Assembly: GCA_051294905.1 (NCBI GenBank)
Contig: CM119371.1
Coordinates: 24,182,001-24,242,000 of the forward strand
DNA: 60,000 bases
Source of the DNA: Botryllus schlosseri
Lineage: Eukaryota
Direction: 5' to 3'
A program made the position numbers and the translations under genes. Below are positions 20,845-58,832 of this stretch, piece after piece; within the stretch, counting starts at the first letter, position 1; each line of letters starts with the position of its first letter. The notes beneath the pieces are model-generated. The model was not told the origin of the DNA, searched no databases, and saw only the letters and a list, made by a program, of their open reading frames with translations.

Positions 20845-21012
20845 CTATCGCAACTGAGAATAGCGGATGCCAAGATGCCTGTAGATGGATATCGCGAAAT
20901 CGCCAATACACTCAACGCCGTCGGTTGTAAAGGGATTCAGTTCGAAAACTGCGAATTGACGAGAGGGAAACTTTCTGAATTCTACTCTGGGTGTAAAGAC
21001 AACGAGTTATCA
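20845..21012 (+). CDS. LRR exon B1
   Basis: cacag|CTA..TCA|gtgagt, 168 nt: LSQLRIADAKMPVDGYREIANTLNAVGCKGIQFENCELTRGKLSEFYSGCKDNELS. Confidence 0.85.
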
Positions 21013-21243
21013 GTGAGTTCGCCTAATTCACTGGAAACGTAGGCTACAATGTGTAGATTACGAGTGGTGCCAGGGCGATCGCGAGCTAGCGGTAAATCAA
21101 AGGGTTCTCTCCCAGATTTTAGTTAAACTCTAGCTAACCTGGGCAACTTGAATCATCACATGCATTCAAAGCTTTTTCCATGAAGATTAAGAGCTTTAAC
21201 GCGTTACTTTATAAGCCCAAGTTTGGTATACAAGGGAAGGACT

Positions 21244-23120
21244 TAGGGATGGTGTAAACATGAGGTTCAAGTAGTCAGCAAATGATACTTATTCAATCAA
21301 TCATTCTAATTGATATAGTAAAAATGGTCGTTGTCTAATGTAATAAATTAAGCGTGTTTTTCGGGATCCATCTGCTCAGAGTCGGACGCCGAATACATTG
21401 TCCGGTCTAGCCTCGACAGTTGAGGCGTAAGCTTACATTACCTTGCAATTCCTCGTCGAAATTGCTCGCAAAGCGACGGGAGATATTTATTTTATGGGAT
21501 TTTTATATCATTTGTTTGCTCCAGTGATACATTTTCTGACGTTTAAAAAGTCAACATGTACTTCAGTATTATGGCATATTGCGACCTGAGTCGTTGCTAG
21601 GTATATTTGTGTACAGTACATTAATATATAACTTCTTTGGCCTCCGCAAAGCTTTCGACACAGTTAACCACAGAATCTTAAGATACAAGCTAGAACACTA
21701 TTGAATCAGGGGTATTGCAGCAACTCTACTTGAAAGCTACCTGGCAAACCGCAAACAATCTGTTAAACTGGGGACATTAAGATCGACTACCAGAGATATA
21801 ACTTGTGGAGTCCCACAAGGCTCAGTAGTTGGACCGACTTTTTTCCTCATTTATATTAACGACATTGTTAATGCATCTTTATTCCGCACAACCCTATTTG
21901 CGCTGATGATACTCACCTCTTCATAATCTCCAACACTGTCAATGATTTGCATGCATCCGTGAATAGGGAACTCCCAAAAGTGTCGAGATGGCTGCAAGCA
22001 AACAAACTAAGCTTGAATGCAGATAAGACCGAGATGCTCCTTTTCAATAATGCCAATCATAGTTTCACTGTGAACATCATCATAAACAAATCTCCATATG
22101 TGACTCAGCAAAATATCTCGGTGTCACCATTGATGCTAAAATGTCTTGGAAGCAGCATATTGAATGCATAATATCAAAACTAGCTCGATGTGTGGGAATA
22201 ATGACCCGTCTGCAATCTTTGGTTTCCAGATCAATACTACGAACCATATATTTTTCTCTTTTCCACTCTCACCTGCAATATGGAATCGTAGTATGGGGAA
22301 GTGCATGCAAAACATTTCTGTGCAGAATTCGAACCCTGCAAAACCGTGCGATACGGCTGATCTCATCTGTACCTTTACGTACCAAACTATCGCCTTACTA
22401 CCGTAAGCACCGAATTTTGCAAGTTGACGACCTATATCGCTTCGAAGTATCAAAAGTCATTCACAAATATTTTTCCTTTAGTTTGCCTCCTGTGTTTGAT
22501 GACTTTTTCATGCCTGTCAAAAATGTCCACTCCCATTACACGAGATCCTCGTCTAAAGGAAATATCTACTTACCCCCGCCCAATAGCATCTTAACTAAGA
22601 GGTCCATCGACTACTCGGGACCTATCATCTGGAATGCATTACCACCACATATCCGTGAATTGCCCTATAATAGATTCAGAAAAGCCCTACTTGATCACCT
22701 CTTATAGTTACACTAACACTGTTGCCCTACCTCGCCCAGACATTGCTTCATTGATCATTTGCTACCATCGTTTAATTTTTCTTCTATTTTATTTTTTTTA
22801 ACTACTGTAACATTTTTTACAGCCAGACTGTTTAGAGTCAAGTGTACCTGTTTGATGCTGGTGATCAGACTAGATGACCTTCACGGTCTAATCGATCATT
22901 CCTATCTAATACCGAATACTGTGCATGCATATTTTCTGTACCACCACCACTGCCGTGTGTTATGTATTTTGGTTTGATGAAAATAAAGACTCTCTCTCTC
23001 TCTCTCTCTCTCTCTCTAGGGTCGGAATTAGCAATGTGACGTCACGTGACGCCATACGGTTCACGTTCGCTTTCACACAGAACCTTTCAAGAAGGTTTGC
23101 GTTCACACGAACCTGCACCC
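21244..23120 (-). mobile_element. TAGGGATGGTGT-type hAT MITE, inverted copy, interrupted by a LINE
   Basis: 21244-21632 and 23018-23120 are reverse-complement matches to parts of the 24429 and 43463 copies. Confidence 0.65.
21633..23017 (+). mobile_element. 5'-truncated non-LTR retrotransposon (CR1/L2 group, Crack/Daphne-like) with (CT)n tail
   Basis: RT motifs LRKAFDTVNHRIL, GVPQGSVVGPTFFLIYIND, FA/DDT (stop and frameshifts), C-terminal SHLQYGIVVWG..LQNRAIRLI..IWNALP, 3'UTR, AATAAA then (CT)n. Confidence 0.9.
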
Positions 23121-23539
23121 TAGGGCCTAGAACGAATGGTCACTTCTGATGACACCAGTGGTTCATGAATAATGTTTTTCTCGCCAGTCATCAAAATATC
23201 TCTTGAACGCCAATGTTGCTGTTTTGCTCTTGAATTCCAATACAGAAGAATACAGGGAGACTATTTTTATCCCGATTGTTGGCCTAGTGTGGCGTACCTC
23301 TCATTGATTACTCTATTGCTCGGATTGATTGCCCTTGCCGATTCGCATGGTAGCCTACCCGATGTTATGTGGCACTCCGATGGGAGTCGCCATTTGGTCA
23401 CCGTCCGAGGAGCGATCGCTTTTAGTCTCCGTCGGACGAGCATCGTTGTACTTTAGTTATTTAAATAAGAGAGTAATGCTGACGTGTCTACTTTGTCTTA
23501 CCGAGTCGCGGACCTAGCAGGAGGCGCGCCCACGACCAG

Positions 23540-24300
23540 AGCACGCTATACTAGTAAACAGTTCAATATTTTCAAGTCGACACAGATTTGCCAACCACAC
23601 TGCTCATATAAAACAAGCTTGATGTCTTCATATTTTTATTTTAGAGTAACCAAATCTTTAGTAGCAATGGGTCTAACTTGGCTGCCATTAGGGCGTGTAA
23701 ATAAATATACTCTCCATTCCTCAGAATCGTATTCAGGCAAACCCGCTTCTGACAGAATATGACTTATGGCATTGCAATATACCAAATAGGCTCCTGAAAA
23801 ATATTCGATATAAAATCTATGCTGCGCAGGGCGCAGGAGACGTTTTTCCTGTAATCTTGAAGCCAACGATTCTGCAAAGGGATCCAGGTCATTTACTTCA
23901 AGATGATTAAACAACAAAGGGTTCGAATTGATTTCTAAGACTTTAAAGCAGTGCTTTTCAACCTTTTTGATTTCCATTCGCACTTTTTGTAAAATAAATT
24001 TCTTTTGCACTAACCGAAAATTGTTACACAAAGAAAAAGGTGAAGATTATTAACAACATTTTGTTCAGATGTGCATCAAGCTGGCTACTATTTAGCTTAA
24101 GTTATCAAGAGTCTCATTATTGCGATTTCAACAACTTCACTAAAACCAAACAAGTTGTTGAGTTTTGTATAAGAACGTCTACTAGGGCTTAGATGACCAG
24201 GTCTTGGAACCTGTTCTGTACTCCCATCCAAAATACAACGTATTTGAAACGAGTGAAAAATGCTTGCTGGCAGAAACCGTTTTTGAGAGCTGACACGAAG
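23540..24300 (-). pseudogene. Chapaev3-type transposase remnant, N-terminal/central part
   Basis: LFNHLEVNDL..AESLASRLQEKRLL..LVYCNAISHILSEAGLPEYDSEEWR, then YEDIKLVL and WQICVDLKILNCLL in another frame. Confidence 0.7.
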
Positions 24301-25158
24301 GTTCCGGAGGCTCCAGTTTGTCGAAAGGGAGGAAACCTCACATGTTTGTGTTGAGGATTTGGCCTGATATCTTGAAAAATAGGATTCAAAACGATCAAGG
24401 TGAGTGGGCACATTAGAGCTCGCTACTATAGGGATGGTGTGAACCTCAGAGGGTTCAGGCTCGTGTGAACGCGAACTTTTTTGAAAGGTTCTGTGTGAAT
24501 GCGAACGTGAGCCGCATGACGCCTCGTGAAGTCATGTTGCTAAAACCAACCCGACGACATTTCTGTGAAGGGATACCTAGCGAGGACTGGGGCCAGATAA
24601 TATCACAATGCTTAAGTTCACGTTTTAAACGTCGCCTAATGTATCAACTGCGACAATCAAATGATATATTAATTCCATATAATTAATATGGTCCGCCGCT
24701 TTGCCAACAATTTCGACGAGGACTTACAAGGTAATTGGCCAGACCGGAAAATGTATTCGGCGTCTGAGTATTGCTACGTTGATATTGAGCAAAGCGTCAT
24801 ACAGGTTTCTATACTTGCTCTCGATATTAACCGATTAACAAGTTATATATCGGTATAACCAACACCCCGATCGCACGGATTTGGTTTTTATGATACAGTA
24901 AACATATGAAGTCATGATTGACCCCGTGCGCCTGCTAGATTTTACCATCAGACAACGATATCAATTCCATTGATTGGTTGAATAAGCATCAATCGCTGAC
25001 TTCGGGTAGTCACTGTAGTGCATTTCGCTGTTGATGTTGTGTGATTGCGGGTAAGTTCATAGCATAGAGTCACTAAATATTCACAAACGGACAGCTGGAT
25101 ATTTAAAGCAAACTTTTGTAACGAAGCAAGTAAAGTATTTAGGATTGTTAAGGTACAT

Positions 25159-28100
25159 TAGGGTTGTTCAAAATTTGGAAAATGTTTGGAATTCTGCGTG
25201 TCCATCGCTTATTCTGTAGATTATTGTTAAAAAACAATAATGGGCTTGAAAGAAGCTCGCAGGAAAGCCGGTAATATTTGTCTAAATGCGTTTGAAAGTA
25301 GCCGTCGGCGAGTGGGCGGGGAATCGATGAAGTGGGCGGGCAAAGAGAAGCCATTAATCCTGATTGGTTGAAGCCGGTAATAATAAGCTAGTGATTGGCT
25401 GAAAGACCGACTTTGTGAACACTGCTGGTAACGATTTTTGCGTGCTGTTGTGCAGTCGTTTCTGTTGGTGGCATTACAGACATGATATATTGCCTTTGTT
25501 AATGTTGTCATCAAGAGTCCATAGTACAACATCGCAACCGCCTAAGGTAATATCTACCTGCAGAAAGTGCTATGTATAGCACAGGTGCTCTCGCTAGTTG
25601 AGATACGAATAAACTAGATGCATGCATATTGCTACCTTCAACCTTTCCAAAAGTTACTGACAGTGAGTGAAACTCAAAAATTTACCACCAGGAGTCAACA
25701 TCTCAGTAGTACTTGTTATGACTGGTCGACATCTCACCCATAAACAGACGCATATTACACTTTTTATTCACAATTGAATGAAGGCGAAAAGCACTATTTA
25801 CAAAAGACATTAAAAAAGTACGTTGCAGATCAGTGTTGCATTGTCAGGCACAAGTTGCAGATTACAGGCTTTTGATTAGAGTTGACTTCCTGCTGTCTCC
25901 AACTGTCTTCCTATGCTGTTCCACAGCTTGAAGCAGACTGTCTCTTTGTTGTTCATTGCCAGTCAAGATTGCAGCATAGTCTGTGCTTAGCTTTACACCT
26001 CGTTCTGCGGCATCATTAACGACTTTGACAGAACTGATGTAGGAGCTCATTCTGGTGTAGGAATCTGATAAGTGCCAAACATCAACCGGTTGAGCTAGCC
26101 ACGCCCCAGAGCATTCAAAAACATCAAATATGTACCACGACTGTGGCCCAATAAAATCAGACAAAGTAGTGTCCTTGTTGATGTGTACAGTTGCATTCAA
26201 CGAGGGCGGGCCTCTCCTGAAACTTGAAGTTCGCTCTACCTGCAGGAGCGTCTTTGCCATATTTTCTCGGGTTTCATTGCTTTCACTCGGCGAAAACAAG
26301 GCATATACAGCGGTTTCCTCCACGATATACCAGTCATGCTTTAAAAGCTTTTGTGAAGCAGCTTTGGAAACTTGTTCATCATGTTCCTTGTAACTCAACA
26401 TGTCCTGGATGAATCTCAAGTCATTACCGGCTGCATCACGACCGATGCTGGAAGCAACCCAGGCAGGGATATAAAAGAGAACTAAAAATAAATTGAAGCG
26501 ATGCAGCAGTTCCACTTCTTCAGATTTGTAATGTAACTGATCAGCCCACATGAACATCTTCTGAGCATACAGAATTGTGCCCATCCATCTTGCATGGTGT
26601 GTTGCACCAGGTTTGTGATGATGTATATCTCCATCTGCACCGAGAAGAGCAAGAGCATTAGTCACACATTGTTTGTAGTCATCCCATGTGAAGAAATCTT
26701 TTCTGGCGAGTAGTAGCTTGAAGTTCTCAACTGTCATTGCTGCTCGTTCTTTAAAGCATATAGGAATAGTCAGAGTCTTGAATTGCTTTTTTCTGTCAAG
26801 ACTGCTCCAGCTCTTCTTAAGGTGGGCAAACCATGTGTTCTCTGGTCCGGTTGTTGCTTTTCCAAATAAACATTTCCAGACGTCTTTGACTACTAGCTCA
26901 TACACATGGTGCCGACACGCATGGTAAAAAACCTTCTTTCCTAGAAGGTCCTCAAGGATCTTCGCTGCACCCTTCTTCCAGCCGCTGTTGCTTGCTGTGG
27001 TGCCAAAAACCAAAGCTGTTACAGCATCTTGTATATCCCACTTTTTAATTATGTCGAAAGTAGTTTCAGCTTGTGTCTGACCTGCCGCATTTTGTATCTT
27101 CTGAATTCCAAGTAGTTTTCCTTCCGAGTATTGAGGTTGACAAGATAGAACAATTGACAAAGCTTCATATCGATTTCCTAATCTATCCTCTGTGAGCTTT
27201 CCATCCCAATGAATGGCAACATGCTGTGGTCTATTTTCGGCAAATTTTTCCAAAATGTCCTGAGATATTTCAGGCGATTTGTTTCCCTGGCTCTCTTCGT
27301 TGAAGATCTTGACAGGGAGAACATGGCTATATCTCCTCCACAAGCCTTAATAAATGGTCCCATCAACATCGTTGTCAGTTACTTGCAATCGATCCAGAGC
27401 TTGGGAAACATGCGTATTTTTCATAATATTTTTAGGTGCCATCAGTTTAATGGATTGGGTCGGGGTGCCAAGTCCAACATCAGCATCATAGTCAGAACTT
27501 GAACTCAAACTGTCACCCTCTTTTGAAGATGACGATGATGCTAAAACAACATAGTCACAACTTGAGTCGTGTGAAACGTTTTCAACAGTTTGATCTGCAA
27601 TGGCTGCTGTTTTCTTTTTGAGGTCTTTAGCCAGAATTTTGTCTCTTCTCAACATTATTGACTGGCGAGATTGCCGCTGATCTTCATAAAATGCAATGTC
27701 TTCAAGCTTTCTTTCATGTGATAGATAAATGTCATTTTTTATTGTTGTTATGGCATCTCTACTTCCAATATCCCACAGCTTGTCCAAATCATCAGTGAAT
27801 TTTGTCCTCTTACCCTTGGGATCACTTTCCTGTTTCGGATTATTCTTCAGATCACGCCATCTTTCGTGCAGGTTTTGAAGTGATCGCACCACATGTGATT
27901 TCTGCATTGTCGCAATTCTCGCCATTTTCCACACTGTCATTACATCATCCACCACCACAGTACATAGTTCATGAGCAGGGGTTGACTGAGGACAATGCTC
28001 TTTCAGATGCAGCAAGTAACTCATTACTTCTCGTATAGTAGGTAATCTCGAGCCACAGATGTAATCGCAAGTATATCCGACCAAGTACTGCTCAGATTTG

Positions 28101-28596
28101 GATCTTGTTCTTCGCTGCGGCATGTGTGCAATCTTTCGCCGTTTTGCCTCTGCCATGACTGCACTATTGTTGCTCCAAAGCATAAACTACTGCTATCGAC
28201 TCTGAAGCATTCAAAGAACACGTGTTACAGTACTACTAATGACTCATCAACACACAACGCGCTTGTACAGAACCACAACCGCTACTAACAGACTCTACCT
28301 CAGCAAAACAGACTTTCAATTTAGTAAAGCGAAGCTCCCGAATCCGAGTCAGCTGTTGCAGTAATCAGTGAAGCTTAGCCGATTACCCAATCAAGAACCG
28401 TTGTTTCGTGATTGCCCGCCTCTGCTGTCGGTTGCCCGCCCACTCTTCAACAACGACTTTCAAACGCATTTAGACAAATGTTAGAGGCTTTCCTGGGAGC
28501 TTCTTTCAAGCCCATTATTGTTTTTTAACAATAATCTACAGAATAAGCGATGGACACGCAGAATTCCAAACATTTTCCAGATTTTGAACAACCCTA
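25159..28596 (-). mobile_element. full-length hAT DNA transposon (hATm-like), copy 1
   Basis: ~140-bp near-perfect TIRs starting TAGGGTTGTTCAAAAT; perfect 8-bp TSD AGGTACAT (25151-25158 and 28597-28604). Confidence 0.95.
25862..28156 (-). pseudogene. hAT transposase of copy 1 (frameshifted)
   Basis: Motifs HWDGK, F(G)TTASNSG, ACRHH, PGATHHARWM, VVNDAAERG; frameshifts near 27370 and 27270; FDTT Asp replaced by Gly. Confidence 0.9.
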
Positions 28597-29008
28597 AGGT
28601 ACATGCTCGTTTAGTGTTGCTTTTTCATGCTGCTAGCGCTGTGCATAGAGTGACCCGCAGGTAAAATGCAATAAATTTCAACCAAAGATGATATAATGAA
28701 GTTAAAATTGTAATATATGACAAAAGTTCACAGTACAGAATCTACCAAGGCTCGTTTGTGAACGTGAACCTCTAAATTTCTGAGGTTCACACACTGAACG
28801 CGAACGTAAACCTTACGTTCACACCACCACTGCTTGCTACCTTATGCTATGTTGCTTCAACTTGTGTTCCGTTTTTTTTTCGATTTACCATTATCTGTCT
28901 CGCGACTAATCGGGATTCGTAACTCCTCTAGTAATCCATAGTAACAGTATCATGCCAATGCTGTGAGTGAATCACGGCAATCCACAGAGCTACCGAAAGT
29001 AATCCATA

Positions 29009-31295
29009 GTCGTTGGTGAAGAGTGGGCGGGCCACCGTCAGCAAAGTTGCGAAAAGGCGGGCAATCACGAAAGCACGGTTCGTGATTGGATAATCGGCTG
29101 AGCTCCAATGATTACTGCAACAGCTGACTCGGATTCAGGTGCTTCGCTTTACTAAATTGACAGTCTGCTTTGCTGAGGTCGAGACTGTTAGTAGCGGCTT
29201 TGGTTCTGTACAAGCACGTTGTGGGTTGATGAGTCATTTAGTAGTACTGTAACATGTGTTCTTTATAGGCTTTAGAGTCGAAAGCAGTAGTTTATGATTT
29301 GGAGCAACAATATTGCAGTCATTGCAGAGGCAAAACGGCGTAAGATTGTACACATGCCGCAGCGAAGAACAAGATCCAAATCTGAGCAGTACCATACTTG
29401 GTCAGATATACTTCCGATCATGTATGTGGCTCGAGATTACCTACTATACGAGAAGTAATGAGATAATTTATGCATCTGAAAGAGCATTGTCCTCAATCAA
29501 CTCCTACTCATGAACTAAGTAATGTGGTGGTGGATGAGGTAATGACAGTGTGGAAAATCGCGCGGATTGCGACAATGCAGAAATTTCATGTGCTGCGATC
29601 ACTTCAACACCTGCGCGAAAGATGGCGTGATATGGCCACCTTAAGAAGAGCTAGATCAGTTTTGACAGAAAACAGCAATTCAAGACTCTGACTATTCGTA
29701 TATGTTTCAAAGAACGAGCAGCAAGGACAGTTAATATCTTCAAGCTACTACTGACCAGAAAAGATTTCTTCACACGGGATGACTACAGACAATGTGTGAC
29801 TGATGCTCTTGCTCTTCTCGGTGCAGGTGAAGATATACATCATCACAAACCTGGTGCGACCCACCATGCAAGATGGATGGGCACGATTCTGTATGATCAG
29901 AAGATGTTAATGTGGGCTTATCAGTTACATTACAAATCTGAAGAAGTGGAACTACTGCATCGCTTCAATTTGTTCTTAGTTCACTTTTGTATACCTGCCT
30001 GGGTTGATTCCAGCATCGATCGTGATGCAGCCGGTAATGACTTGAGATTAACCCAGGACATGTTGAGTTACAAGGAACATGATGATCAAGTTTACAAAAG
30101 CTGCTTTAAAAAGCTTTTAAAGTATGACTGGTATATCGTGGAAGAAACCGCTGTATATGCCTTGTTTTCGCCGAGTGAAAGCATTGAAACCCGAGAAAAT
30201 ATAGCAAAGACGCTCCTGCAGGTAGAGCGAACTTCAAGTTTCAGAAGGGGCCCAGACTCGTTAAGTGCAACTGTACATATCAACAAGGACACTACTTTGT
30301 CTGCTATTATTGGGCCATAGTCGTGGTATATATTTGACCTTTTTGAATGCTCTGGGGCGTGGCTAACTCAACCGGTTGATGTTTGGAACTTATCAGATTC
30401 CTACACCAGAATGAGCTCATACATCGGTTCTGTCAAAGTCGTTAATGGTGCCACAGAAGAAGGTGTAAAGCTAAGCACAGACTATGCTGCAATGTTAACT
30501 GACAATGAACAACTAAGAGACAGTCTGCTTCCAGCTGTGGAACAACATAGGAAGACAGTTGGAGACAGCAGGAAGTCGACTCTAATCAAAAGTCTGTAAT
30601 CTGCAACTTGTGCCTGACAATGCAACACTGATCCTGCAGGTACTTTTTTAATGTCTATTGTAAATAGTGCTTTTTGCCTTCATTCAATCGTGAATAAAAA
30701 GTGTAATATGCGTTTGTTTATTGGCGAGACGTCGACTAGACATAACAAGTACTACTGAGATGTTGACTGCTAGTGGGAAATTTTTGATTTCCACTCACTG
30801 TCAGTAGGTATTGGAAAGGTCGAAGGTGGCAAGATGCATGCATCTAGTTTATTCGTATCTCAACTAGCGAGAGCACCCGTGCAATGCATAGCAACACTGT
30901 TATACACATTCTGCAGGTAGATAATAACTGTGGGGATTGCAATGTTGCACCATGGACTCTCGATCACAACATTGACAAAGGCAATATATCATGTCTGCAA
31001 TGCCACCAACAAAAACGACTGCACAACAGCACACAGAAATAGTTACCAGCAGTGTTCACAAAGGCGGTCTTTCAGCCAATCAGTAGCTTATTATTACCGG
31101 CTTAAACCAATCAAGATTATTGGCTTCTGTTTGCCCGCCCACTCGCAGACAGCTACTTTCAAACGCATTTAGACAAATCTTCCCGGCTTTCCTGCGAGCT
31201 TCTTTCAGGCCTATTATTGTTTTTTTATCAATAATCTACAGAATAAGCCATGGATACGCAGTATTCTAACATTTTCCAAATTTTGAACAACCCTA
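29009..31295 (+). mobile_element. older, 5'-truncated and internally deleted copy 3 of the same hAT
   Basis: Ends TTTTGAACAACCCTA; ~1-kb deletion at ~29632 joins RERWRD to HLKK; stops and frameshifts; visibly more diverged than copies 1 and 2. Confidence 0.9.
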
Positions 31296-31688
31296 ATGTG
31301 TATGTGTACTATGGTCAATGGTCATTTACACCAGACCAAACGGGAAAGTACATGCAGGGACTTCGTATGTCGTCAGCTCAGAGTAATTGCTAAACATATG
31401 CGATCTGACTAAATATGCTTTTGACACATTCTTACTTGGTATTTTTCAGAGCTTTTATATTGACATGTCTTAGAAATGACCACTTTTACTTGAAATTGAG
31501 AATAAATGTAAGGAGTTACTTGTTGTTATACTTAAGTAGCAACGCTGGTCAGTTCAACCACATCTGGTTTGAAGTAAACTATCATAGCTAATCGAAAACC
31601 ACCCTGAAAATGTAGACGTTATTATATTCAGAACTGTAGAGACGTTTAAACATGCAAAATACAACTGAGCTACTACATTAACATTCAG

Positions 31689-31856
31689 GTTTCGAAACTG
31701 TCGATATGGGATAGTACGATGACTTCGGATGTCTATAGTGATGTCGCGGCTATAATCAGTATCACGGGATGTTCGACGGTATTTTTAGGGAACTGCGATT
31801 TGACGAAACAGAAATTGGACAATTTCAGGACGACTGGCAAGGAAAATCAAATATCT
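31689..31856 (+). CDS. LRR exon A2
   Basis: ttcag|GTT..TCT|gtaagc, 168 nt: VSKLSIWDSTMTSDVYSDVAAIISITGCSTVFLGNCDLTKQKLDNFRTTGKENQIS. Confidence 0.85.
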
Positions 31857-32132: not shown

Positions 32133-32300
32133 CTCTCAAGTCTACAAATCATCGATGTCAAAATGCCAGCCGAAAGTTACGGTGAAATCGCAATTACACT
32201 CAAGTCCATCGGTTGCAAAGAGATAATGTTCGAAAACTGCGAATTGACGAGACGGAAGCTCTCTGAATTCTACACTGGATGTAAAGACCACCACGTATCT
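32133..32300 (+). CDS. LRR exon B2
   Basis: ttttaaag|CTC..TCT|gtaagt, 168 nt: LSSLQIIDVKMPAESYGEIAITLKSIGCKEIMFENCELTRRKLSEFYTGCKDHHVS. Confidence 0.85.
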
Positions 32301-35584: not shown

Positions 35585-36357
35585 CTGTACACAATGTCAA
35601 CAAAATGAATAAGTGAACGACTCTTGGACTCTTGTAATGCTTTTGATCACTACAACTAAATCCCGCAGGTCAGGAACAGGTATAAAATGTTGTTGACCTT
35701 GTTATACGCAGACCCGTATATCCAACGAGTAAGTGAAAATGACAAAACATCGAGTGGCATGGAAATACGCCACAACCGCCAATACGTATTGTACAGTAAA
35801 TTGTTAGATTTTCCAGACTAGTCCGATCCCGCAATATCACTGATTATGCCTATGCATATAATTGCGGGTGTGGGAAGAATACATGAACAAATTCTCGAAA
35901 ATGATGTTTTTAGTAGACGTCATTTATCAGACATTTCTGACATTGGAATGGACAGATAAAATCGACATTATAGGTTACTCTTGCTGTCGACGTAAGTAGC
36001 CCTAAACAGAAAAAAACATCTAGTGTTCTCAAACTTGGCATTTACTTTACTTTGATTTTGATATCCATCTTTAAGTTAATTTATTGTACTGGAAACTTAC
36101 AGATATGAATATTCGTTTTCGCCAATTTGTTGACATATTTGATATTGCAATTCCTATATCATCGAAAATAGAATTATTTCTTGCTGTCGACGGCGAATAT
36201 CCCTGCACAAAAAAAAAATCATCTACTTTTTTAAAGCATAATAGTTACAATACTCTTATCTTGGTCTCAATTCACATTCGGCTCACGTAGAACAAGCCCA
36301 AAAGAATCAAGTCCGATACTGGGTAATCCAGTATCGAACTGGAATAGCCATATCCAC

Positions 36358-39300
36358 TAGGGTTGTTCAAAATTTGGAAAATGTTTGGAATTCTGCGTGT
36401 CCATCGCTTATTCTGTAGATTATTGTTAAAAAACAATAATGGGCTTGAAAGAAGCTCGCAGGAAAGCCGGTAATATTTGTCTAAATGCGTTTGAAAGTAG
36501 CCGTCGGCGAGTGGGCGGGGAATCGATGAAGTGGGCGGGCAAAGAGAAGCCATTAATCCTGATTGGTTGAAGCCGGTAATAATAAGCTAATGATTGGCTG
36601 AAAGACCGACTTTGTGAACACTGCTGGTAACGATTTTTGCGTGCTGTTGTGTAGTCGTTTCTGTTGGTGCCATTACAGACATGATATATTGCCTTTGTTA
36701 ATGTTGTCATCAAGAGTCCATAGTACAACATCGCAACCGCCCAAGTTAATATCTACCTGCAGAAAGTGCTATGTATTGCACAGGTGCTCTCGCTAGTTGA
36801 GATACGAATAAACTAGACGCATGCATCTTGCTACCTTCAACCTTTCCGAAAGTTACTGACAGTGAGTGAAACTCAAAAATTTACCACCAGGAGTCAACAT
36901 CTCAGTATAGTACTTGTTATGACTGGTCGACGTCTCACCCATAAACGAACGCATATTGCACTTTTTATTCACAATTGAATGAAGGCGAAAAGCACTATTT
37001 ACAAAAGACATTAAAAAAGTATGTTGCAGATCAGTGTTGCATTGTCAGGCACAAGTTGCAGATTACAGGCTTTTGATTAGAGTTGACTTCCTGCTGTCTC
37101 CAACTGTCTTCCTATGCTGTTCCACAGCTTGAAGCAGACTGTCTCTTTGTTGTTCATTGTCAGTCAAGATTGCAGCATAGTCTGTGCTTAGCTTTACACC
37201 TCGTTCTGCGGCATCATTAACGACTTTGACAGAACTGATGTAGGAGCTCATTCTGGTGTAGGAATCTGATAAGTGCCAAACATCAACCGGTTGAGCTAGC
37301 CACGCCCCAGAGCATTCAAAAACATCAAATATGTACCACGACTGTGGCCCAATAAAATCAGACAAAGTAGTGTCCTTGTTGATGTGTACAGTTGCATTCA
37401 ACGAGGGCGGGCCTCTCCTGAAACTTGAAGTTCGCTCTACCTGCAGGAGCGTCTTTGCCATATTTTCTCGGGTTTCATTGCTTTCACTCGGCGAAAACAA
37501 GGCATATACAGCGGTTTCCTCCACGATATACCAGTCATGCTTTAAAAGCTTTTGTGAAGCAGCTTTGGAAACTTGTTCATCATGTTCCTTGTAACTCAAC
37601 ATGTCCTGGATGAATCTCAAGTCATTACCGGCTGCATCACAACCGATGCTGGAAGCAACCCAGGCAGGGATATAAAAGAGAACTAAAAATAAATTGAAGC
37701 GATGCAGCAGTTCCACTTCTTCAGATTTGTAATGTAGCTGATCAGCCCACATGAACATCTTCTGAGCATACAGAATTGTGCCCATCCACCTTGCATGGTG
37801 TGTTGCACCAGGTTTGTGATGATGTATATCTCCATCTGCACCGAGAAGAGCAAGAGCATTAGTCACACATTGTTTGTAGTCATCACGTCTGAAGAAACCT
37901 TTTCTGGCGAGTAGTAGCTTGAAGTTCTCAACTGTCATTGCTGCTCGTTCTTTAAAGCATATAGGAATAGTCAGAGTCTTGAATTGCTGTTTTCTGTCAA
38001 GACTGCTCCAGCTCTTCTTAAGGTGGGCTCTGGTCCGGTTGTTGCTTTTCCAAATAAACATTTCCAGACGTCTTTGACTACTAGCTCATACACATGGTGC
38101 CGACACGCATGGTAAAAAACCTTTTTTCCTAGAAGGTCCTCAAGGATCTTCGCTGCACCCTTCTTCCAGCCGCTGTTGCTTGCTGTGGTGTCAAAAACCA
38201 AAGCTGTTACAGCATCTTGTATATCCCACTTTTTAATTATGTCGAAAGTAGTTTCAGCTTGTGTCTGACCTGCCGCATTTTGTATCTTCTGAATTCCAAG
38301 TAGTTTTCCTTCCGAGTATTGAGGTTGACAAGACAGAACAATTGACAAAGCTTCATATCGATTTCCTAATCTATCCTCTGTGAGCTGTCCATCCCAATGA
38401 ATGGCAACATGCTGTGGTCTATTTTCGGCAAATTTTTACAAAATGTCCTGAGATATTTCCAGACGATTTGTTTCCCTGGCTCTCTTCGTTGAAGATCTTG
38501 ACAGGGAGAACATGGCTATATCTCCTCCACAAGCCTTAATAAATGCTCCTATCAGCATCGTTGTCAGTTACTTGCAATCGATCCTCCAGAGCTTGGGACA
38601 CATGAGTATTTTTCATAATATTTTTAGGTGCCATCAGTTTAATGGATTGGGTCGAGGTGCCAAGTCCAACATCAGCATCATAGTCAGAACTTGAACTCAA
38701 ACTGTCACCCTCTTTTGAAGATGACGATGATGCTAAAACAACATAGTCACAACTTGAGTCGTGTGAAACGTTTTCAACAGTTTGATCTGCAATGGCTGCT
38801 GTTTTCTTTTTGAGGTCTTTAGTCAGAGTTTTGTCTCTTCCCAACATTATTGACTGGCAAGATTGCCGTTGATCTTCATAAAATGCAATGTCTTCAAGCT
38901 TTCTTTCATGTGATAGATAAATGTCATTTTTTATTGTTGTTATGGCATCTCTACTTCCAATATTCCACAGCTTGTCCAAATTATCAGTGAATTTTCTCCT
39001 CTTACCCTTGGGATCACTTTCCTATTTCGGATTCTTCTTCAGATCACGCCATCTTTCGTGCAGGTTTTGAAGTGATCGCACCACATGTGATTTCTGCATT
39101 GTCGCAATTCTCGCCATTTTCCACACAGTCATTACATCATCCACCACCACAGTACATAGTTCATGAGTAGGGGTTGACTGAGGACAATGCTCTTTCAGAT
39201 GCAGCAAGTAACTCATTACTTCTCGTATAGTAGGTAATCTCGAGCCACAGATGTAATCACAAGTATATCCGACCAAGTACTGCTCAGATTTGGATCTTGT

Positions 39301-39789
39301 TCTTCGCTGCGGCATGTGTGCAATCTTTCGCCGTTTTGCCTCTGCCATGACTGCACTATTGTTGCTCCAATTCATAAACTACTGCTATCGACTCTGAAGC
39401 ATTCAAAGAACACGTGTTACAGTACTACTAATGACTCATCAACCCAAAACGCGCTTGAACAGAACCACAACCGCTACTAACAGACTCTACCTCAGCAAAA
39501 CAGACTTTCAATTTCGTAAAGCGAAGCTCCCGAATCCGAGTCAGCTGTTGCAGTAATCAGTGAAGCTTAGCCGATTACCCAATCAAGAACCGTGGTTTCG
39601 TGATTGCCCGCCTCTGCTGTCGGTTGCCCGCCCACTCTTCAACAACGACTTTCAAACGCATTTAGACAAATGTTAGCGGCTTTCCTGGGAGCTTCTTTCA
39701 AGCCCATTATTGTTTTTTTTACAATAATCTACAGAATAAGTGATGGACACGCAGAATTCCAAACATTTTCCAAATTTTGAACAACCCTA
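36358..39789 (-). mobile_element. full-length hAT DNA transposon (hATm-like), copy 2
   Basis: Same TIRs as copy 1; perfect TSD ATATCCAC (36350-36357 and 39790-39797); nearly identical to copy 1. Confidence 0.95.
37063..39348 (-). pseudogene. hAT transposase of copy 2 (disrupted)
   Basis: Retains FDTTASNSG but has a 13-bp deletion at ~38027, nonsense codons at ~38437 and ~39022 and further frameshifts. Confidence 0.9.
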
Positions 39790-40159
39790 ATATCCACCAA
39801 CCACCATAGCACATTACAAAGTAGACTAAGTGCATTTGTATCGAATGCAAAAATAATTGTTTCAGAGCAGATCATCACGGATGTACCGTCTCATATTTGC
39901 TAGTATAGTTAGTAATGCATTCCCACCTCAAGGAAATGGTTTTATACAGAGCACTGAGTCGCTTATACACACTCGATAATCTTTGAACCATAGAAATTCA
40001 CTGACTGAATATTTGTCACTCTATGTTCGTTCGATGATTTGCATGGACTCTCTCGATTATTTTAGGTGACTACGCGAAATGAGTGTCAGACATTCCAGCG
40101 AGCAATTATATAATGGTCTCGAATAATCACTGCTGACAAGTTGCATCATTATCATTCAG

Positions 40160-40327
40160 CTTGCCAAGCTGTCGTTATGGGATTGTACGATGACGTCAGA
40201 TATCTACGGTAACGTTGCGGATATTATCAGCATCACGGGATGTTCGACAATATTTTTTGGAGAATGCGATTTGACGAAACAAAAGTTGCAAAGTTTCACG
40301 GAAACCGGCAAGAATATTAAAATATCT
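40160..40327 (+). CDS. LRR exon A3
   Basis: ttcag|CTT..TCT|gtaagt, 168 nt: LAKLSLWDCTMTSDIYGNVADIISITGCSTIFFGECDLTKQKLQSFTETGKNIKIS. Confidence 0.85.
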
Positions 40328-40475
40328 GTAAGTTACAAATTTCTCTGATTGATTTGATTGGTTTTGATATGAATAATTCGTATTATGAAAAGAAGTACCA
40401 AGAAGTGAATCGAACTTAAACTATATACAGTAATTGTAAATAAATCGGATATGATGATTATATCTTATTTCATAG

Positions 40476-40643
40476 CTCTCCAAGCTCCACATAAGCGATG
40501 TCAAAATGCCCACTGAATGTTACCGCGAAATCGCAACTACACTCAAGTCCATCAGTTGCGAAGAGATCGTGTTCGGAAACTGTGAATTGACGGATCTGAA
40601 GCTTTTAGAATTCTACACTGGATGTAAAGACAACGATCTATAT
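40476..40643 (+). CDS. LRR exon B3
   Basis: catag|CTC..TAT|gtaagt, 168 nt: LSKLHISDVKMPTECYREIATTLKSISCEEIVFGNCELTDLKLLEFYTGCKDNDLY. Confidence 0.85.
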
Positions 40644-42872
40644 GTAAGTTTAGTTAATGTACCGAAAACGTGCATTGTTTGTATCACGAGTGATCGCTAA
40701 GTTTTCATTTGGTTTATCATTCCTACCCGCATATCACACAATTATATTATTCGCAGAATGTCATGCGTTTGACGAGTGATATTTACAGTACTTATTCCGG
40801 AGATTGGTAGATTAAAGTGACTTCTGTGCTGGAAAAGTAGTCAGAAATCCTTCCAAATAATGAGCACACAACACAAATTGACAAAATGAATTACTGAACA
40901 ACTCGTGGACTATTGCAATGCGTTTGATCGCTGCAACCAAATCCCGCATGCTAGAGACCGTTCGAAAATGCCGTTGACTGTATTGCAGTTTGCAACGCAC
41001 TGATAAGAATTGCGATGATAGTTGGGGGTAGCCCAGTAAATAAGAAGGGTAAGTTAAAATGGAATTAGTATAGAGAGCTATGCAAATTTGTTCTGGATAC
41101 GCGGCCAACGATAATACAGCTTATACACTACATCGTTGGATTTCCTAGATTAAAATGCGATACAATCATAATTTCATTGAATAAGTTAATGACGACAAGA
41201 ACTGTGGGATGTAAGAAGAATAAATCAGCAAAATCGTAGAAGTTATGCTTATTTATTTCTCGACCTTTTTGACACTGGAAATGATAGATAATAAGAATTG
41301 GAATCTTCTCGCGCTCTCTAATTCAGTATCCCTGCAAAGAAACATTTCTACTATTCTGAAACTTGACTCATATATCAGTTTTCAGTGCGTGACAGCCTCT
41401 TGAAATTCCCGACTATGACGTACCGTTTGAACCGTGTGGTGTTTCATACATTTTCCGCACAATTCAATCCAAGGAAGTTTTACGAATAACATCATAAGCT
41501 ACTGCAAAGATTAGCATATATACGGGACTGCAATATTTTTATTTCAATATACGAGCTCGGAAGATGTTGATGAAATATAGTTTACTAGAGATGTTGCAAA
41601 CATTTATTTACGTTGGTGTACGGCTTGGAATCCGTGAGCTACGTGTCCACAAACTAATTTTGTATGAAGTACCAGTAGTTCCCAATAATCTTAGCAATAG
41701 TCGTAAAAATTCTTGAGATGGTAACTGCACCGCGATGTCAGCAAAGGAAGTTTAACCCAAACGTAAGAGGTAAATTGAGATGTAATTAATTTTTAACAAT
41801 TTCGATAAAGTTGCTTGACATATCACACCATAGTAATTCCTAATAATTAAATACCTCACTTTCGGTACTTCTACGTATTGGAATATGCATATAAATATGC
41901 CTGTACAAGTAAAAGGTTAGCTCTGTGTCATAACGAAGAACCAGTGTATTTGGGTATGTTTTGCAAACTAATTATTTGACTTTCTGGGTAAGCTAGGGTA
42001 ACATAAAATAAGCGTTCATTCAATACTTGCCGTAGATTCTTAACACTTGCGGCGCAAATTCACTAGGGTTCCACTATAATATCACGTACGAGTTGTTGGT
42101 ATTACTATGTCACGTGATAAAACACTCCGTTCGATCAATAACTACTATGTCGCTAAATTTTAACGACACAAATACCACTCCTGCTCCGCCGATAACGCTG
42201 ATAACGCCAGGTGCAACAGTAATATATGCAACTACCATTACTTTTGTCAAATATACATCAGTTTACTTTGATGTAATTTCCGGGTCGCTCGGCTAAGAAA
42301 ACGATGGTGACTCATCTGAAAAGTAGTGTTGTGATGTGCGCGTATGCTGGCAGTTTTGGTACGCTCATCGAATCGACTTTGATCTGCGATATTGCTACAA
42401 CAGTCGGCCATGTTGCTGCAAGCGAATTCGCCTTGTAACCTCGTTGTCAATTATATTTATATTTAAATACTTATGTTTATGACAAGATAGAACAGGGTGA
42501 AGGGCTGCATGCGATCGTCACCGCAACTTTTTGGGATCCCTAAATGCAAAAATATTTTGAAAACATCGCATGTATATTAGAGAATCAGAATGTCGTTAAA
42601 CACCGGAATTTCCCTGCTATTTCCAACTACGAATTAGACATGTAGAGGCCAAATATACTAAGGCACTTCATTGATTATTTCCTATTTGACTCAGTTGCTC
42701 AATCTGATGAGTAAATCGTAAACGTAAATCGTAATCGCCAGGACATCGCTACGTGTATTGCTAATTCCTGTTTCGCAACCTTTCTTAAACAAAAGAGTAA
42801 ATAAACAATAATCCAATTTAGAGTATACAGTTGCAACGCAATCGGTAATTAAAAAGACTGTTTATTTTGTAG
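40476..42872 (+). repeat. second tandem duplication unit (B exon plus following intron), paralogous to 42873-47769
   Basis: Collinear once the three MITEs at 43463, 44913 and 45624 are removed from the second copy. Confidence 0.85.
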
Positions 42873-43040
42873 CTCTCAACTCTGTCTATAATCGATGCCA
42901 AAATGCCTGCTGAAAGTTTTCGTGAAATCGCAATCACACTCAAGACCACATGCTGCAAAGAGATGCAGTTCGAAAACTGCGAATTGACGAGTCGGAAGCT
43001 GTTTGAATTCTACACTGGATGTAACGACAACGATCTATCG
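42873..43040 (+). CDS. LRR exon B4
   Basis: tgtag|CTC..TCG|gtaagt, 168 nt: LSTLSIIDAKMPAESFREIAITLKTTCCKEMQFENCELTSRKLFEFYTGCNDNDLS. Confidence 0.85.
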
Positions 43041-47769: not shown

Positions 47770-47937
47770 CTCTCAAATCTGATCATTATCGATGCCAAAA
47801 TGTCTGCTGAAAGTTTTCGTGGAATTGCAATCACACTCAAGACCACATGTTGCAAAGAGATTAATTTCAGAAACTGCGAATTGACGGCACGCAAGCTCTC
47901 GGAATTCATCAATGGATGTAAAGACTACCATCTATCT
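47770..47937 (+). CDS. LRR exon B5
   Basis: tgtag|CTC..TCT|gtaagt, 168 nt: LSNLIIIDAKMSAESFRGIAITLKTTCCKEINFRNCELTARKLSEFINGCKDYHLS. Confidence 0.85.
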
Positions 47938-49364: not shown

Positions 49365-49577
49365 TCATTTTTTGATTCCGTATTCACCGACTTTTAGCAC
49401 AGCCCACTCCTAGGATTTTATAAATCACCGCTTACGCGGATCACATGACAACGAGGAGCCTAGATAAACCTCCAACACTTGGGTAGGAATTCTCGTGTCG
49501 TCCTCAGCCGGACTCGAACCAACAACCCATTGGTGTTGCAGCTGTGGATTATACCAATGACCACGCCATTTCACCAC
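49365..49577 (-). mobile_element. tRNA-derived SINE (same family as 13297)
   Basis: Reverse complement shows GCTGCAACACCAATG..GGTTCGAGTCCG and the shared body; a further degenerate head at ~51250-51360. Confidence 0.7.
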
Positions 49578-55596: not shown

Positions 55597-55725
55597 GGGG
55601 GAGATAGCGTAGCAGTGATGCGTGCGGCTTTTTGATCTGTAAATCGTTGGTTCAATCCCCGGGCGGGTCAGACCTAAGATTCGAAAACTGGTATCCACGG
55701 TATCCGATGGTTAAGATAAAAATAA
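55597..55725 (+). mobile_element. tRNA-headed SINE of a second family (Meta-domain-like)
   Basis: A-box TAGCGTAGCAGTG, B-box GGTTCAATCCC, followed by GGTCAGACCTAAGATTCGAAAACTGGTAT resembling the MetaSINE core as I recall it. Confidence 0.5.
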
Positions 55726-58348
55726 GTTTGTTTGCTTTCTCTCTTTCTCTCTCTTGAGCATTAGTAAGGTGAATCCTTTCTTATTTGCACGGTTAGAGCA
55801 ACAACCCTCCTTGGTTTATCTGGGCTACTCCTCCGACAAAGACATGGATTTGCGAATGCCAGGAAAGCGAACACTGAATTGCTAGGACAAGCAACTGAAA
55901 CACAGCTGAAGAGAAAAAATGGAAGCCAATCACCTTCACGATTAGGCCGAGATGGATGCTATAGATTAATAATAACCGTGCTTGGTAGTTTTAGCATTCT
56001 CTTCTCTGTTCAATATGTCGCAATGCATCTTTAGTACCGCATTGCACATTGTCTGGCTTGAGCGGAAACAATAATTTGAGCTAAATTAGAAATAAAAGTC
56101 GGGGGTTCGCTGAGGCTCGCGACGGTCCAAAAGGGGTCCGCAAAGACATGAAAGGTTGAGAATAACTGACACAAGGTACATGCCTTACGCTCGCAACTGA
56201 CAGAGCATCTTAAAGCTGTTTTGACACAAGCAAATCAACGACCTATCAGCTCGATATATTGGGTGCGGGAAATACTACAGAATATTTATCATGCTATAAC
56301 CAATACATATATTTGATGGAGTTGTATTAAGGTAAATCAGGGATCCTTTTTCACAATATGTATCACGAGTGTTAAACAACAAAATTTAACGATGGTATAG
56401 TGCCCTTTCGCCTTTGCCAAGAGCTAATCAGGGCCCAAATAATAGGAGTCGCCATTAAAATCGTACGATCCGCGGTGTCTACCAAGATCGCAACTAGAAC
56501 TTATGTCGAGTCATCACAATGGTAGTCAGCATTTTTTATGTCGTCATTTTTTAAAACAGTGTATAAAGTCTTAAAATCCCTATATATACTGGAATGGTCT
56601 AAACTGAGTAAATCCTAAACAAAAACTATCATGTATGCAAAGCGGTGTCATTTTATACACGCGAAAAGTGGAAGAAAATCCCCCCTATTGATTGTCGACT
56701 TAATGCCACTTTTCAAAATACGGGGTTTATACAGGGGTCAAAATGTCGCCATTGTAACTCGAAATTCCTGCTACTTCATGACTTGATTTCTTTTGGAAGG
56801 GACAAATGAGGGACTAATAAGCGTGGTCCCAAACGGATTTGCTTAACAGACGATAGCAACCGAGGGAAAAATGTCGCCAAGAATTAGGGGGACACAAAAT
56901 TGTCTCCCAATTTTTTTCGTCCCCCAACTGCTACAAAAATAAGTGCGATTGTCTCCCGAAGTAGCCTAATAGGTAAATATATATATATATTCGTATAATA
57001 CTTATATGCTGTGAAGGAACGGAGTTCAGGTGAGGATATGTTCGTCACAACAATTTTTAGCCTTCCCCAAATTGAAAAGGGTTGAAGAACGCTTGGAAGA
57101 GCACCGATTTAGAGCGTTAACCCCTATTCTCAAAAATACTCAAAACATTGCATCTACATTACAAAGTCCCTTAAAAACAGGAATTTACCCATTATTTTTC
57201 TAATATAATTTCGGCAGATCATTATGTATTACCGTTCTTGAATTTACGTGTCTAATAACTAACCCAATTACAAATCCAAACGATCTTACGATATCAGATT
57301 GCCTTGTCCAAGCACTCATTTTTATGTTAGACAATACGCAGTCAATCAAATGCTGAAATTTTTTCACTTCGATTTGTCGACAAAATGACTGTAAACAATG
57401 AATAAGTGAGCGACTCTTGGACTCTTCTAATGCTTTTGATCACTGCAACCAAATCCCACAGGTATTATTGCAAGGCACCGATAAGAATTGCAATGATAGT
57501 TAGGGCAGACCCGTATATCCGACGAGTAAGTGAAAATGACAAGCCATCGAGTGGCATGGAAATAAGTTCTGAATACGCCGCAACCGCCAATACGTATTGT
57601 ACACTAAATTGTTAGATTTCCCAGATTAAAGTCCAATCCCGCAATTTCACTGAAAATGCCTTTGACGAATAATTGCGGGGGTGGGGAGAATACATGAACA
57701 AATTCTCAAACATGATGTCAATCTAATGTGCAGGAAACTTATCGATAATGAATATCAGTTTTCGCCAATTTGTTGATATATTTGATATTAGAATTCCTAT
57801 ATCATCGAAAATAGAATTATTTCTTGCTGTCGACGGCGAATATCCCTGCACTCTAAAAGCATCTACTGTCTATATTAATAGTTACAATGTTCTGGTATCA
57901 GTTTGCATTTTGCTACAGCCAAAGGTGGTCAAATTAGGAGTAGAAACGCAAAAAATCGACTCAAGTAGAACACGCACAAAAGAATGAAGTCCTACATTGG
58001 GCAATCCAGTATCGAACCGTGCATTTGTATCGTATGCGAAAAAAATTGTTTTGGAGCAGATCATCACGGATGTACCGTCTCAAATTTGCTAGTCTAGTTC
58101 GTAATGCATTCTCACGTCAAGGAAATAGTTTTATACGGAGCATTGAGTCGCAAGTACACACTCGATAATCTTTCAGCGATAGAAATTCAGCGACTGAATA
58201 TTTTTCACTGTATTTTCGTTCGATGATTTCCATGGAGTCTCTCGATTATTTTAGGTGACTATGCGAAATGAATGTCGGACATTCCAGCGAGCAATTATAT
58301 CATGGTCTCGAATAATCACTACTGACACGTTAAATCATTATCATTCAG

Positions 58349-58516
58349 CTTGCCAATCTGTCGTTACGGGATGGTACGATGACGTCAGATATCTATGGTA
58401 ACGTTGCGGATATTATCAGCATCACGGGATGCTCGACAATATTTTTTGGAGAATGCGATTTGACGAAACAAAAGTTGCAAAGCTTCACGAAAACCGGCAA
58501 GAATATTAAAATATCT
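58349..58516 (+). CDS. LRR exon A4
   Basis: ttcag|CTT..TCT|gtaagt, 168 nt: LANLSLRDGTMTSDIYGNVADIISITGCSTIFFGECDLTKQKLQSFTKTGKNIKIS. Confidence 0.85.
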
Positions 58517-58664
58517 GTAAGTTACAGATTTTGCTGATTGATTTGATTTGTTTTGATATGAATAATTCGTATTATGAAAAGAAGTACCAAGAAGTAAATC
58601 GACCTTAAACTATATACTGTAATGGTAAATAAATTGGATATGATGATTACATCTTATTTCCTAG

Positions 58665-58832
58665 CTCTCGAAGCTCCACATAAGCGATGTCAAAATGCCA
58701 GCTGAATGTTACCGCGAAATCGCAACTACACTCAAGTCCATCAGTTGCAAAGAGATAGTGTTCGAAAACTGTGAATTGACGAGTCTGAAGCTTTTTGAAT
58801 TCTACGCTGGATGTAAAGATAACGATCTATCT
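58665..58832 (+). CDS. LRR exon B6
   Basis: cctag|CTC..TCT|gtaagt, 168 nt: LSKLHISDVKMPAECYREIATTLKSISCKEIVFENCELTSLKLFEFYAGCKDNDLS. Confidence 0.85.

Follow-up and report, generated by a model that had tools for sequence, protein, structure and literature searches.

In lampreys, VLR cassettes are assembled somatically into an incomplete germline gene, and the product is exposed on the cell surface or secreted. A diversified LRR binding face is already known in plant NLRs and in brown-algal ROCO genes. For expanded invertebrate NLRs, direct binding of variable ligands by the LRRs is still an open question. In plant hvNLRs the variable residues occupy x positions within the LxxLxLxx sheet and are taken as ligand-binding sites (Prigozhin and Krasileva, PMC8226289). 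In vertebrate NLRP3 and the NLRP genes, NACHT is followed by frame-preserving exons, each with two RI-class repeats and a fixed exon border; alternative splicing was demonstrated there for NLRP3 (Hoss et al., PMC6642158). The zebrafish NLR-B30.2 genes, a large expansion, differ in how many LRRs they have but keep the last one fixed, and they undergo gene conversion (Howe et al., PMC4852459).

The exon array and its NACHT host gene

The window is a 60,000-nt stretch of the Botryllus schlosseri genome (assembly GCA_051294905.1, contig CM119371.1, positions 24,182,001-24,242,000, forward strand). It contains ten array exons, four of A and six of B type, each 168 nt long, open and in phase 0, and all ten are intact at the splice sites, with AG before and GT after (Table 1). 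The A exon at 20454 sits just ahead of position 20845, at which the earlier note had started. One A exon (58349) is included in a duplicated block (39830-41658 and 58019-59827, 90% identical). The introns of the array are filled with transposons. The peptides quoted in the earlier note were all found at their positions in the ten exons. Its description of the core as invariant holds within the window (NCELT in 6/6 B exons, CDLTKQKL and ITGCST each in 4/4 A exons) but was rejected as a general statement, the respective counts across the cluster being 22/44, 13/31 and 13/31.

Table 1. Exons of the array and of its host gene (positions in the window unless prefixed C1)
Feature	Position	Strand	Splice sites, frame, phase	Remarks
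First coding exon of host gene	C1:24160684			outside window
99-nt motif exon of host gene	C1:24162490			outside window
NACHT exon of host gene	C1:24164839-24165983			17 kb before window
Four open exons after NACHT exon of host gene				outside window
Frameshifted exon of host gene	C1:24175730-24175889			upstream of array, outside window
LRR exon A type, two predicted repeats, 168 nt	20454..20621	+	AG/GT, open, 0	closest relative in neighbouring paralogue g3
LRR exon B type	20845..21012	+	AG/GT, open, 0	
LRR exon A type	31689..31856	+	AG/GT, open, 0	16 nt from g3 exon
LRR exon B type	32133..32300	+	AG/GT, open, 0	19 nt from g3 exon
LRR exon A type	40160..40327	+	AG/GT, open, 0	zero RNA reads, 4 runs
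LRR exon B type	40476..40643	+	AG/GT, open, 0	zero RNA reads, 4 runs
LRR exon B type	42873..43040	+	AG/GT, open, 0	zero RNA reads, 4 runs
LRR exon B type	47770..47937	+	AG/GT, open, 0	11 nt from g8 exon
LRR exon A type	58349..58516	+	AG/GT, open, 0	duplicate of 40160 exon, 7 nt differences
LRR exon B type	58665..58832	+	AG/GT, open, 0	AlphaFold2 beta-alpha-beta-alpha
Three further array exons of host gene	window-equivalent 61693, 65199, 67609			outside window

The NACHT exon of the host gene matched PF05729 (E=1.8e-12, 47.9 bits, cut-off 26.7) with Walker A present, and the first match in an Atlas search was a NACHT/NOD2-WH cluster in which Chordata was the commonest phylum. The match to NOD2_WH after NACHT was weak (E=0.004, 17.7 bits, below the 23.1 cut-off). 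Pfam gave no HD2 family match on the exons following NACHT, and neither a search for longer homologues of the NACHT exon nor a PDB sequence search with it returned any. Contig C1 carries a cluster of eight paralogous NACHT exons, all open (8/8) and 72-81% identical to that of the host gene. Every C1 array exon found is on the same strand as NACHT, and the paralogues of the cluster vary in exon number and order. The assignment of the exons to a NACHT gene family is supported. NACHT itself is under purifying selection: over 379 codons M0 ω was 0.27 and M8/M8a 2dL was 0.4, the M8/M7 value of 40.0 being disregarded because of numerical warnings.

The exon phases of the host gene fit together through seven exons. 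The eighth, which is 168 nt long in 5/5 paralogues examined, has 160 nt with a frameshift and a stop in the host-gene copy, and in one array exon AT replaces the GT donor. Since this recent frameshift lies upstream of the array, the host-gene copy has either just died or can function only if the frameshifted exon is skipped. Upstream of the NACHT exon the model comprises no more than about 55 residues, and a 32-aa exon there is without a Pfam match; no death-fold exon (PYD, CARD or DEATH) was found within the model, though one may have been missed. RNA reads were found on none of exons 40160, 40476 and 42873 in 4/4 runs, of which 6-13% each was searched at 94% likeness. NACHT and the array would presumably be spliced into one protein.

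Predicted fold of the repeated module

In the AlphaFold2 model of B exon 58665, obtained with an alignment of 117 exons (mean pLDDT 94), strands are at residues 3-6 and 30-33, helices at 14-25 and 40-52. The exon profile matched the designed LRR proteins 4R5D (E=1.3e-5) and 4R6G (E=1.4e-3) in the register LxxLxLxxN/CxL. The top structural match among 48,161 chains was ribonuclease inhibitor (Z 5.3, a value within the range of common folds; rmsd 2.2, 53 aligned), and LRR clusters were matched in the Atlas (0.90-0.93). These four observations support the reading of the exons as LRRs. Foldseek found nothing at E<=0.001 with the 56-residue model, TIM barrels being mixed with LRRs, as the model is too short to discriminate. 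No Pfam LRR family matched any of the 117 exons at E<=0.1 or the ten window exons singly, and because the repeats escape Pfam, ordinary annotation would label such genes NACHT-only. Each exon is predicted to encode two ribonuclease-inhibitor-type LRRs (about 27+29 aa by profile alignment), with six residues, x3, x5 and x7 of each strand, predicted to face the concave side.

Probable selection at six strand positions

The earlier note had proposed that substitutions concentrate at the strand x positions. Within the window this was true of x3, x5 and x7 in the six B exons, which had 3.7 residue types per site (positions 3, 5, 7, 30, 32 and 34) compared with 2.4 in the exposed helix (one-sided Mann-Whitney p=0.018). 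The remaining x positions of the B exons (2, 8, 29 and 35) were nearly fixed, with 1.25 residue types, so the ten x positions jointly did not differ from the helix (p=0.37), and in the four A exons the strand sites varied less than the helices did (1.7 vs 2.2). The proposal thus did not hold for the A exons or for the x positions as a whole set, and the statement that all x positions vary was rejected, x2 and x8 being conserved. Site models detected no significant positive selection in the ten window exons (M2a/M1a p=0.53; M8/M7 p=0.09), and M8/M8a for the six B exons was 1.8. The six sites had ω=1.31 (p=0.2) in the window exons, 0.41 in the window A exons and 1.39, not different from 1, on the host gene's own terminal branches. 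At all ten strand x positions of the window exons the pooled ω was 0.78, no higher than in the helix (p=0.7), and the window alone therefore fails the dN/dS comparison by which the earlier note had wanted selection to be judged.

Family-wide, dN was above dS at six codons in three arrays, and the core and helices were under purifying selection. The six-site class (positions 3, 5, 7, 30, 32 and 34, i.e. x3, x5 and x7 of both strands) was fixed after the first site-model fits, those of cluster B and the C7 array, which leaves C12 and C3 as the only tests that are truly out of sample. The sites selected were 3, 5, 7, 30, 32, 34 and 41 in 43 cluster B exons (M8/M8a 2dL=14.6) and 3, 5, 30, 32 and 34 in 21 C7-array exons (ω ~3.7). 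In the class test, the six sites had ω=1.88 (p=5e-9) in the cluster B exons and 3.89 (p=3e-14) in the C7 array. The corresponding values were 0.50 and 0.60 for the exposed helix and 0.14 and 0.18 for buried sites; dS was not raised at the six sites, and x2 and x8 of the cluster B exons were under purifying selection (ω 0.41). Out of sample, the six-site ω was 2.39 (p=8e-9) in 25 exons of the C12 array and 1.71 (p=0.04) in nine C3 exons. When 89 exons were pooled, the six strand positions were the only ones of 56 with ω above 1 (1.8-3.3 per site). Helix sites 41 and 47/48, flagged in some C1 fits, had ω of ~1 or lower in the pooled set and were rejected as selected sites. Cluster A exons gave a six-site ω of 1.27 (p=0.1), or 0.93 in close pairs, and no six-site signal was detected in the C15 array (18 old exons, ω=0.78). 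With paralogous exons, the diversifying selection suggested in the earlier note is thus supported in three different arrays, at x3, x5 and x7 of both strands; in the window alone it was not significant.

The codon sets did not include 171/174-nt exons, two out-of-register matches, the broken exon C1:24647728, identical DNA copies and seven further C7 exons; two exons whose splice sites are damaged were included by hand. As the tiling covered part of the cluster, the exon counts are lower bounds. The six-site result stood with separate trees per repeat and with trees built without the six codons. Tree-free disjoint pairs gave a six-site ω of 1.53 (p=0.02) for cluster B and 3.38 (p=0.005) for C7. 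Without the host gene and two others (28 exons) ω was 2.43, and M8 selected exactly the six sites.

Origin of the signal and relation to known systems

In our opinion the exons are probably two-repeat modules of a NACHT-LRR sensor in which six predicted concave residues per module are under diversifying selection across the family copies, likely altering binding. Symmetric phase-0 exons would duplicate and be exchanged together with their intron flanks; such exchange would alter repeat number and order with the reading frame kept, and point changes would be favoured at the inner strand residues. The family may have an immune role and bind ligands directly, and by analogy with plant NLRs and VLRs the selected residues might set recognition specificity. 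It is unlikely that the six residues are merely unconstrained (ω ~1), with an apparent excess produced by lowered synonymous rates, by gene conversion among the exons or by errors of the model. Cluster B close pairs would agree with this, because their six-site pN was only 1.22x the flanking intron divergence (p=0.2) and exon pS (0.116) was below intron p (0.136), as would the non-significant results with the window alone, cluster A and C15, and an implementation using fixed topologies, scaled branch lengths and naive empirical Bayes. In the C7 array, however, the six sites exceeded intron divergence 2.16x (p=0.02), and identical sites, each with elevated ω, were chosen in three arrays. The real value of 1.86 was reached in 0/56 replicates of a recombination null (mean 1.07, maximum 1.47), and under a double-hit model the six-site ω was still 1.80 for cluster B and 3.48 for C7 (p<=2e-5).

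We give similarly little credence to the idea of a genuine selection that is driven by evasion of a pathogen inhibitor, or by coevolution with a partner in the host or with the NLR's own domains, and not by new ligand specificities. Recognition and evasion look alike in dN/dS, an NLRP3 LRR exon bears a surface for the host partner NEK7 (PMC6642158), and the cluster A exons, with W at position 7 in 21/27 and G at position 34 in 22/27, suggest that part of the same face makes a fixed contact. Nevertheless, other arrays show selection at the same positions in their A and B exons as well as in terminal-type ones, and the up to 14 residue types at a single site resemble a variable binding sheet more than a single escape interface. 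That the window exons are relics of a gene copy already dead, varying through decay, appears most improbable: the upstream frameshifted exon, the lost donor, the three exons without RNA reads and the transposon-filled introns would fit, but ten of ten window exons are open and keep their splice sites, and the family signal is independent of the host gene. Buried sites on the host gene's terminal branches have ω=0.14, equal to background (p for ω=1: 5e-9), so a loss of function, if there was one, is recent. The sensor interpretation could be extended to a plant-style direct-recognition NLR repertoire in an invertebrate, with dozens of NACHT genes, interchangeable two-LRR exons that are duplicated, exchanged and possibly alternatively spliced, six selected binding-face residues per exon, and signalling via a short N-terminal motif, not a death-fold; this wider scheme is possible, though we regard it as doubtful.

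A concentration of ω>1 at predicted concave strand positions, as in diversifying LRR receptors, was found family-wide, not in the window alone and not in C15. Among titles and opening lines of abstracts on NLR/LRR selection and tunicate NLRs, a set with most subscription papers outside it, we found none that reports such LRR selection for NLRs of a tunicate or of any other invertebrate. The Botryllus array exons differ from lamprey VLR cassettes in having ordinary splice sites and lying downstream of a NACHT exon. The vertebrate NLRP genes resemble the Botryllus family in the frame-preserving two-repeat RI-class exons that follow NACHT and in the fixed exon border, but their exons have 171 nt (28+29 aa) as compared with 168 nt (~27+29) in Botryllus, in whose gene model no death-fold exon was found. 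The zebrafish NLR-B30.2 genes, like the Botryllus family, are a big expansion of animal NLRs in which the number of LRRs varies, the last LRR is fixed and gene conversion occurs; their LRRs, however, are described as showing no particular variability, with selection on B30.2 (PMC4852459), whereas in Botryllus the signal is in the LRR strands themselves. The Ectocarpus ROCO LRRs have in common with this family repeat-per-exon arrays, paralogues with different exon numbers, recombination both within and between genes, and a predicted concave face on which M8 picks selected sites; they differ in that the ROCO exons are 72-nt single-repeat exons of GTPases with inverted intronic copies, in contrast to 168-nt two-repeat RI-type exons on a NACHT gene. 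Plant hvNLRs resemble the Botryllus family in their variability at x positions of the LxxLxLxx sheet; they carry NB-ARC and were measured within species, whereas here the domain is NACHT, only x3, x5 and x7 are involved and the comparison is between paralogous exons of one assembly. The six-residue signature, repeated in three arrays, provides exact positions for swaps in binding or activation assays and connects an animal NLR family with the pattern seen in plants and in a brown alga.

The predicted fold of the array exons

The ten window exons, four of type A and six of type B, are each 168 nt long and in phase 0, with an intact ORF, AG before and GT after, and the peptide motifs quoted in the earlier note were all found on the + strand by six-frame translation. 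Pfam LRR models gave no match on these ten exons or on a set of 117 array exons. The profile of the 117 exons matched designed LRR proteins, both halves being in the LxxLxLxxN/CxL register, where positions 3, 5, 7 and 30, 32, 34 are x3, x5 and x7 of the two strands (hereafter the six sites). AlphaFold2 predicted strands at 3-6 and 30-33 and helices at 14-25 and 40-52 (pLDDT 94). Structure comparison with 48,161 chains gave ribonuclease inhibitor as the best match (Z 5.3), with RanGAP1, NLRP2 and NLRP1 ranked lower and mixed with unrelated folds; Foldseek on the exon model was uninformative. In established LRR geometry the x positions lie on the concave side (PMC8226289), and it is from this geometry rather than from a multi-repeat model that the six sites are placed there.

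The core described as invariant in the earlier note is so inside the window (6/6, 4/4 and 4/4 exons) but not across the cluster of eight NACHT paralogues on the same contig (22/44, 13/31 and 13/31). The raw variability claimed for strand sites was seen in the window B exons (3.7 residue types at the six sites vs 2.4 on exposed helices, p=0.018), but neither in the window A exons nor when all ten x positions, including x2 and x8, were pooled. Cluster A exons carry Trp at position 7 in 21 of 27 cases and Gly at 34 in 22 of 27 (e.g. window 40160-40327); in contrast, both positions vary in B exons. This pattern suggests that fixed and variable stripes may run along one face.

Signature of selection at six strand sites

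Codon likelihoods were obtained with our own GY94 implementation (M0 lnL -2773.28 vs -2773.35 from IQ-TREE) on fixed DNA-based topologies, with a single factor scaling the M0 branch lengths and with naive empirical Bayes; class models share dS between site classes. The six-site class was defined after the site-model results, and the C12 array, on another contig (25 exons, three already in hand), was analysed afterwards.

The window's ten exons alone did not bear out diversifying selection (M2a/M1a p=0.53, M8/M7 p=0.09). For the cluster B exons (43 unique), the tests gave M2a/M1a p=3e-4 and M8/M8a 2dL=14.6, with sites 3, 5, 7, 30, 32, 34 and 41, and 21 exons of another array, C7, gave ω about 3.7-4.2 with sites 3, 5, 30, 32 and 34. 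Site models were not significant for the 27 cluster A exons and showed no selection in 18 exons of the C15 array. In class models, six-site ω was 1.88 in cluster B and 3.89 in C7; it was 1.31 (p=0.2) in the window, 1.27 (p=0.1) in cluster A and 0.78 in C15. Across these five sets ω was 0.44-0.84 on exposed helices and 0.09-0.18 in the buried core. The six-site value reached 2.39 (p=8e-9) in C12 and 1.71 (p=0.04) in nine C3 exons, and A-type exons were selected in C7 (ω 6.4) and C12 (2.4), 7 exons each. Selection on all ten x positions held in C7 (2.20, p=1e-7), but not in the window (0.78), cluster A (0.86) or C15 (0.57), and was not significant in cluster B (1.18, p=0.07), where x2/x8 had ω=0.41. 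With 89 exons of three arrays pooled, the six sites, and no others of the 56, exceeded 1 (ω 1.8-3.3, p<=0.001 each). The signature is real and fairly clean, narrower than first claimed, and demonstrable only with paralogues.

In cluster B and C7 the signal was kept with a separate tree per repeat, with trees built without the six codons, and in tree-free disjoint pairs; such pairs gave 1.27 (p=0.08) for all cluster exons and 0.93 for A exons. It was also kept under a double-nucleotide model and when the host gene of the window array was left out. Under a four-segment recombination null, 0/56 replicates reached the real 1.86, and the NACHT exon control showed no positively selected class. With intron flanks as neutral yardstick the cluster B excess shrank to 1.22 (p=0.2), while that of C7 stayed at 2.16 (p=0.02). 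On the host gene's terminal branches six-site ω was 1.39, not significant, with buried sites still at 0.14.

The host gene and its family

The gene model opens with a first coding exon of 67 nt and an exon of 99 nt. These are followed by the NACHT exon (about 17 kb upstream of the window, on the strand of the array), four open exons, a 160-nt exon and an array of thirteen exons in the order ABABABBBABBBT. Both the NACHT and the LRR part of an animal NACHT-LRR gene are present and would be joined in a putative single transcript. For the NACHT part, the first Atlas hit was a NACHT/NOD2-WH cluster with Chordata as its most frequent phylum. The host gene copy is damaged; skipping of its 160-nt exon would preserve the frame.

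Features of the host gene (C1) and of its introns (window positions; the window is C1:24182001-24242000)
Feature	Position	Strand	Remarks
99-nt exon	C1:24162490-24162588		phase 1-1; directly before NACHT exon
Short exon	C1:24175730-24175889		160 nt vs 168 nt in five paralogues (8 nt less); frameshift and stop
B-type array exon	C1:24247199-24247366		open; donor AT where GT expected
3.4-kb repeat element, two copies	25156-28597, 36355-39790		97.7% identical; in introns
Inverted partial copy of the element	29008-31304
ORF, 537 aa	4086-5699	-	Cys/His clusters; long intron before array
ORF, 322 aa	1241-2209	-	long intron before array

The product of the 99-nt exon includes a conserved, beta-prone stretch of 32 residues, which Pfam did not match and which may resemble RHIM/fungal amyloid signalling motifs. 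Searched against the genome, this exon had 103 matches at E<=10, and many of them lay a few kb upstream of a NACHT exon. Seven close paralogues of the NACHT exon lie on the contig, and some twenty others are more distant. A genome-wide search for the NACHT family scored 94 of 224 candidates. For a B exon queried against the 495-Mb genome, 150 of 304 candidates were scored as matches, and these form clusters on several contigs. The C7 tiles (C7:28464001-28710000) had no NACHT exon of the cluster subfamily up to ~50 kb upstream of the selected array.

Arrays of the eight paralogues hold at least 3 to 21 exons in differing orders. The nearest relative of the first four window exons is paralogue g3, that of several later ones g8, g1, g7 or g4, which is consistent with exchange between genes. 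In g6 (C1:24424984-24460378), six near-identical A-B pairs spaced about 5.6-7.7 kb apart point to a very recent tandem expansion; similar repeated exon triplets lie at C7:28565679-28585981.

The 3.4-kb element has terminal inverted repeats of about 190 bp and ORFs of 494 and 279 aa without a Pfam match, and is likely a recent DNA transposon. The 537-aa and 322-aa ORFs, also unmatched in Pfam, are probably transposon-derived. RNA depth in four bulk runs carrying the same species label (6-13% of each run read) fell on intronic repeats only and was zero at exons 40160, 40476 and 42873. The evidence is weak, since the absent reads could be due to any one of low expression, the tissue, allelic divergence above 6% and the frameshift.

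Proposed mode of diversification

The most probable mechanism is duplication and exchange of symmetric exons, which leaves the reading frame unbroken; a duplicated exon block was observed within the window. Purifying selection would hold the core and helices, and changing ligands may push the inner strand residues to vary, the recognition function of the six sites being putative. A signature of this kind is already known in plants and algae; literature searches on invertebrate animal NLRs found none. Ascidian NLRs without an N-terminal domain are mentioned (PMC11508797), the exon layout of NLRP3 is similar to that of the present NACHT-LRR array (PMC6642158), and in zebrafish NLRs selection acts on B30.2, unlike the LRR strand sites here (PMC4852459). 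The mode of working proposed for the cluster exons resembles that of the Ectocarpus ROCO exon arrays (PMC3341825) and of highly variable plant NLRs (PMC8226289).
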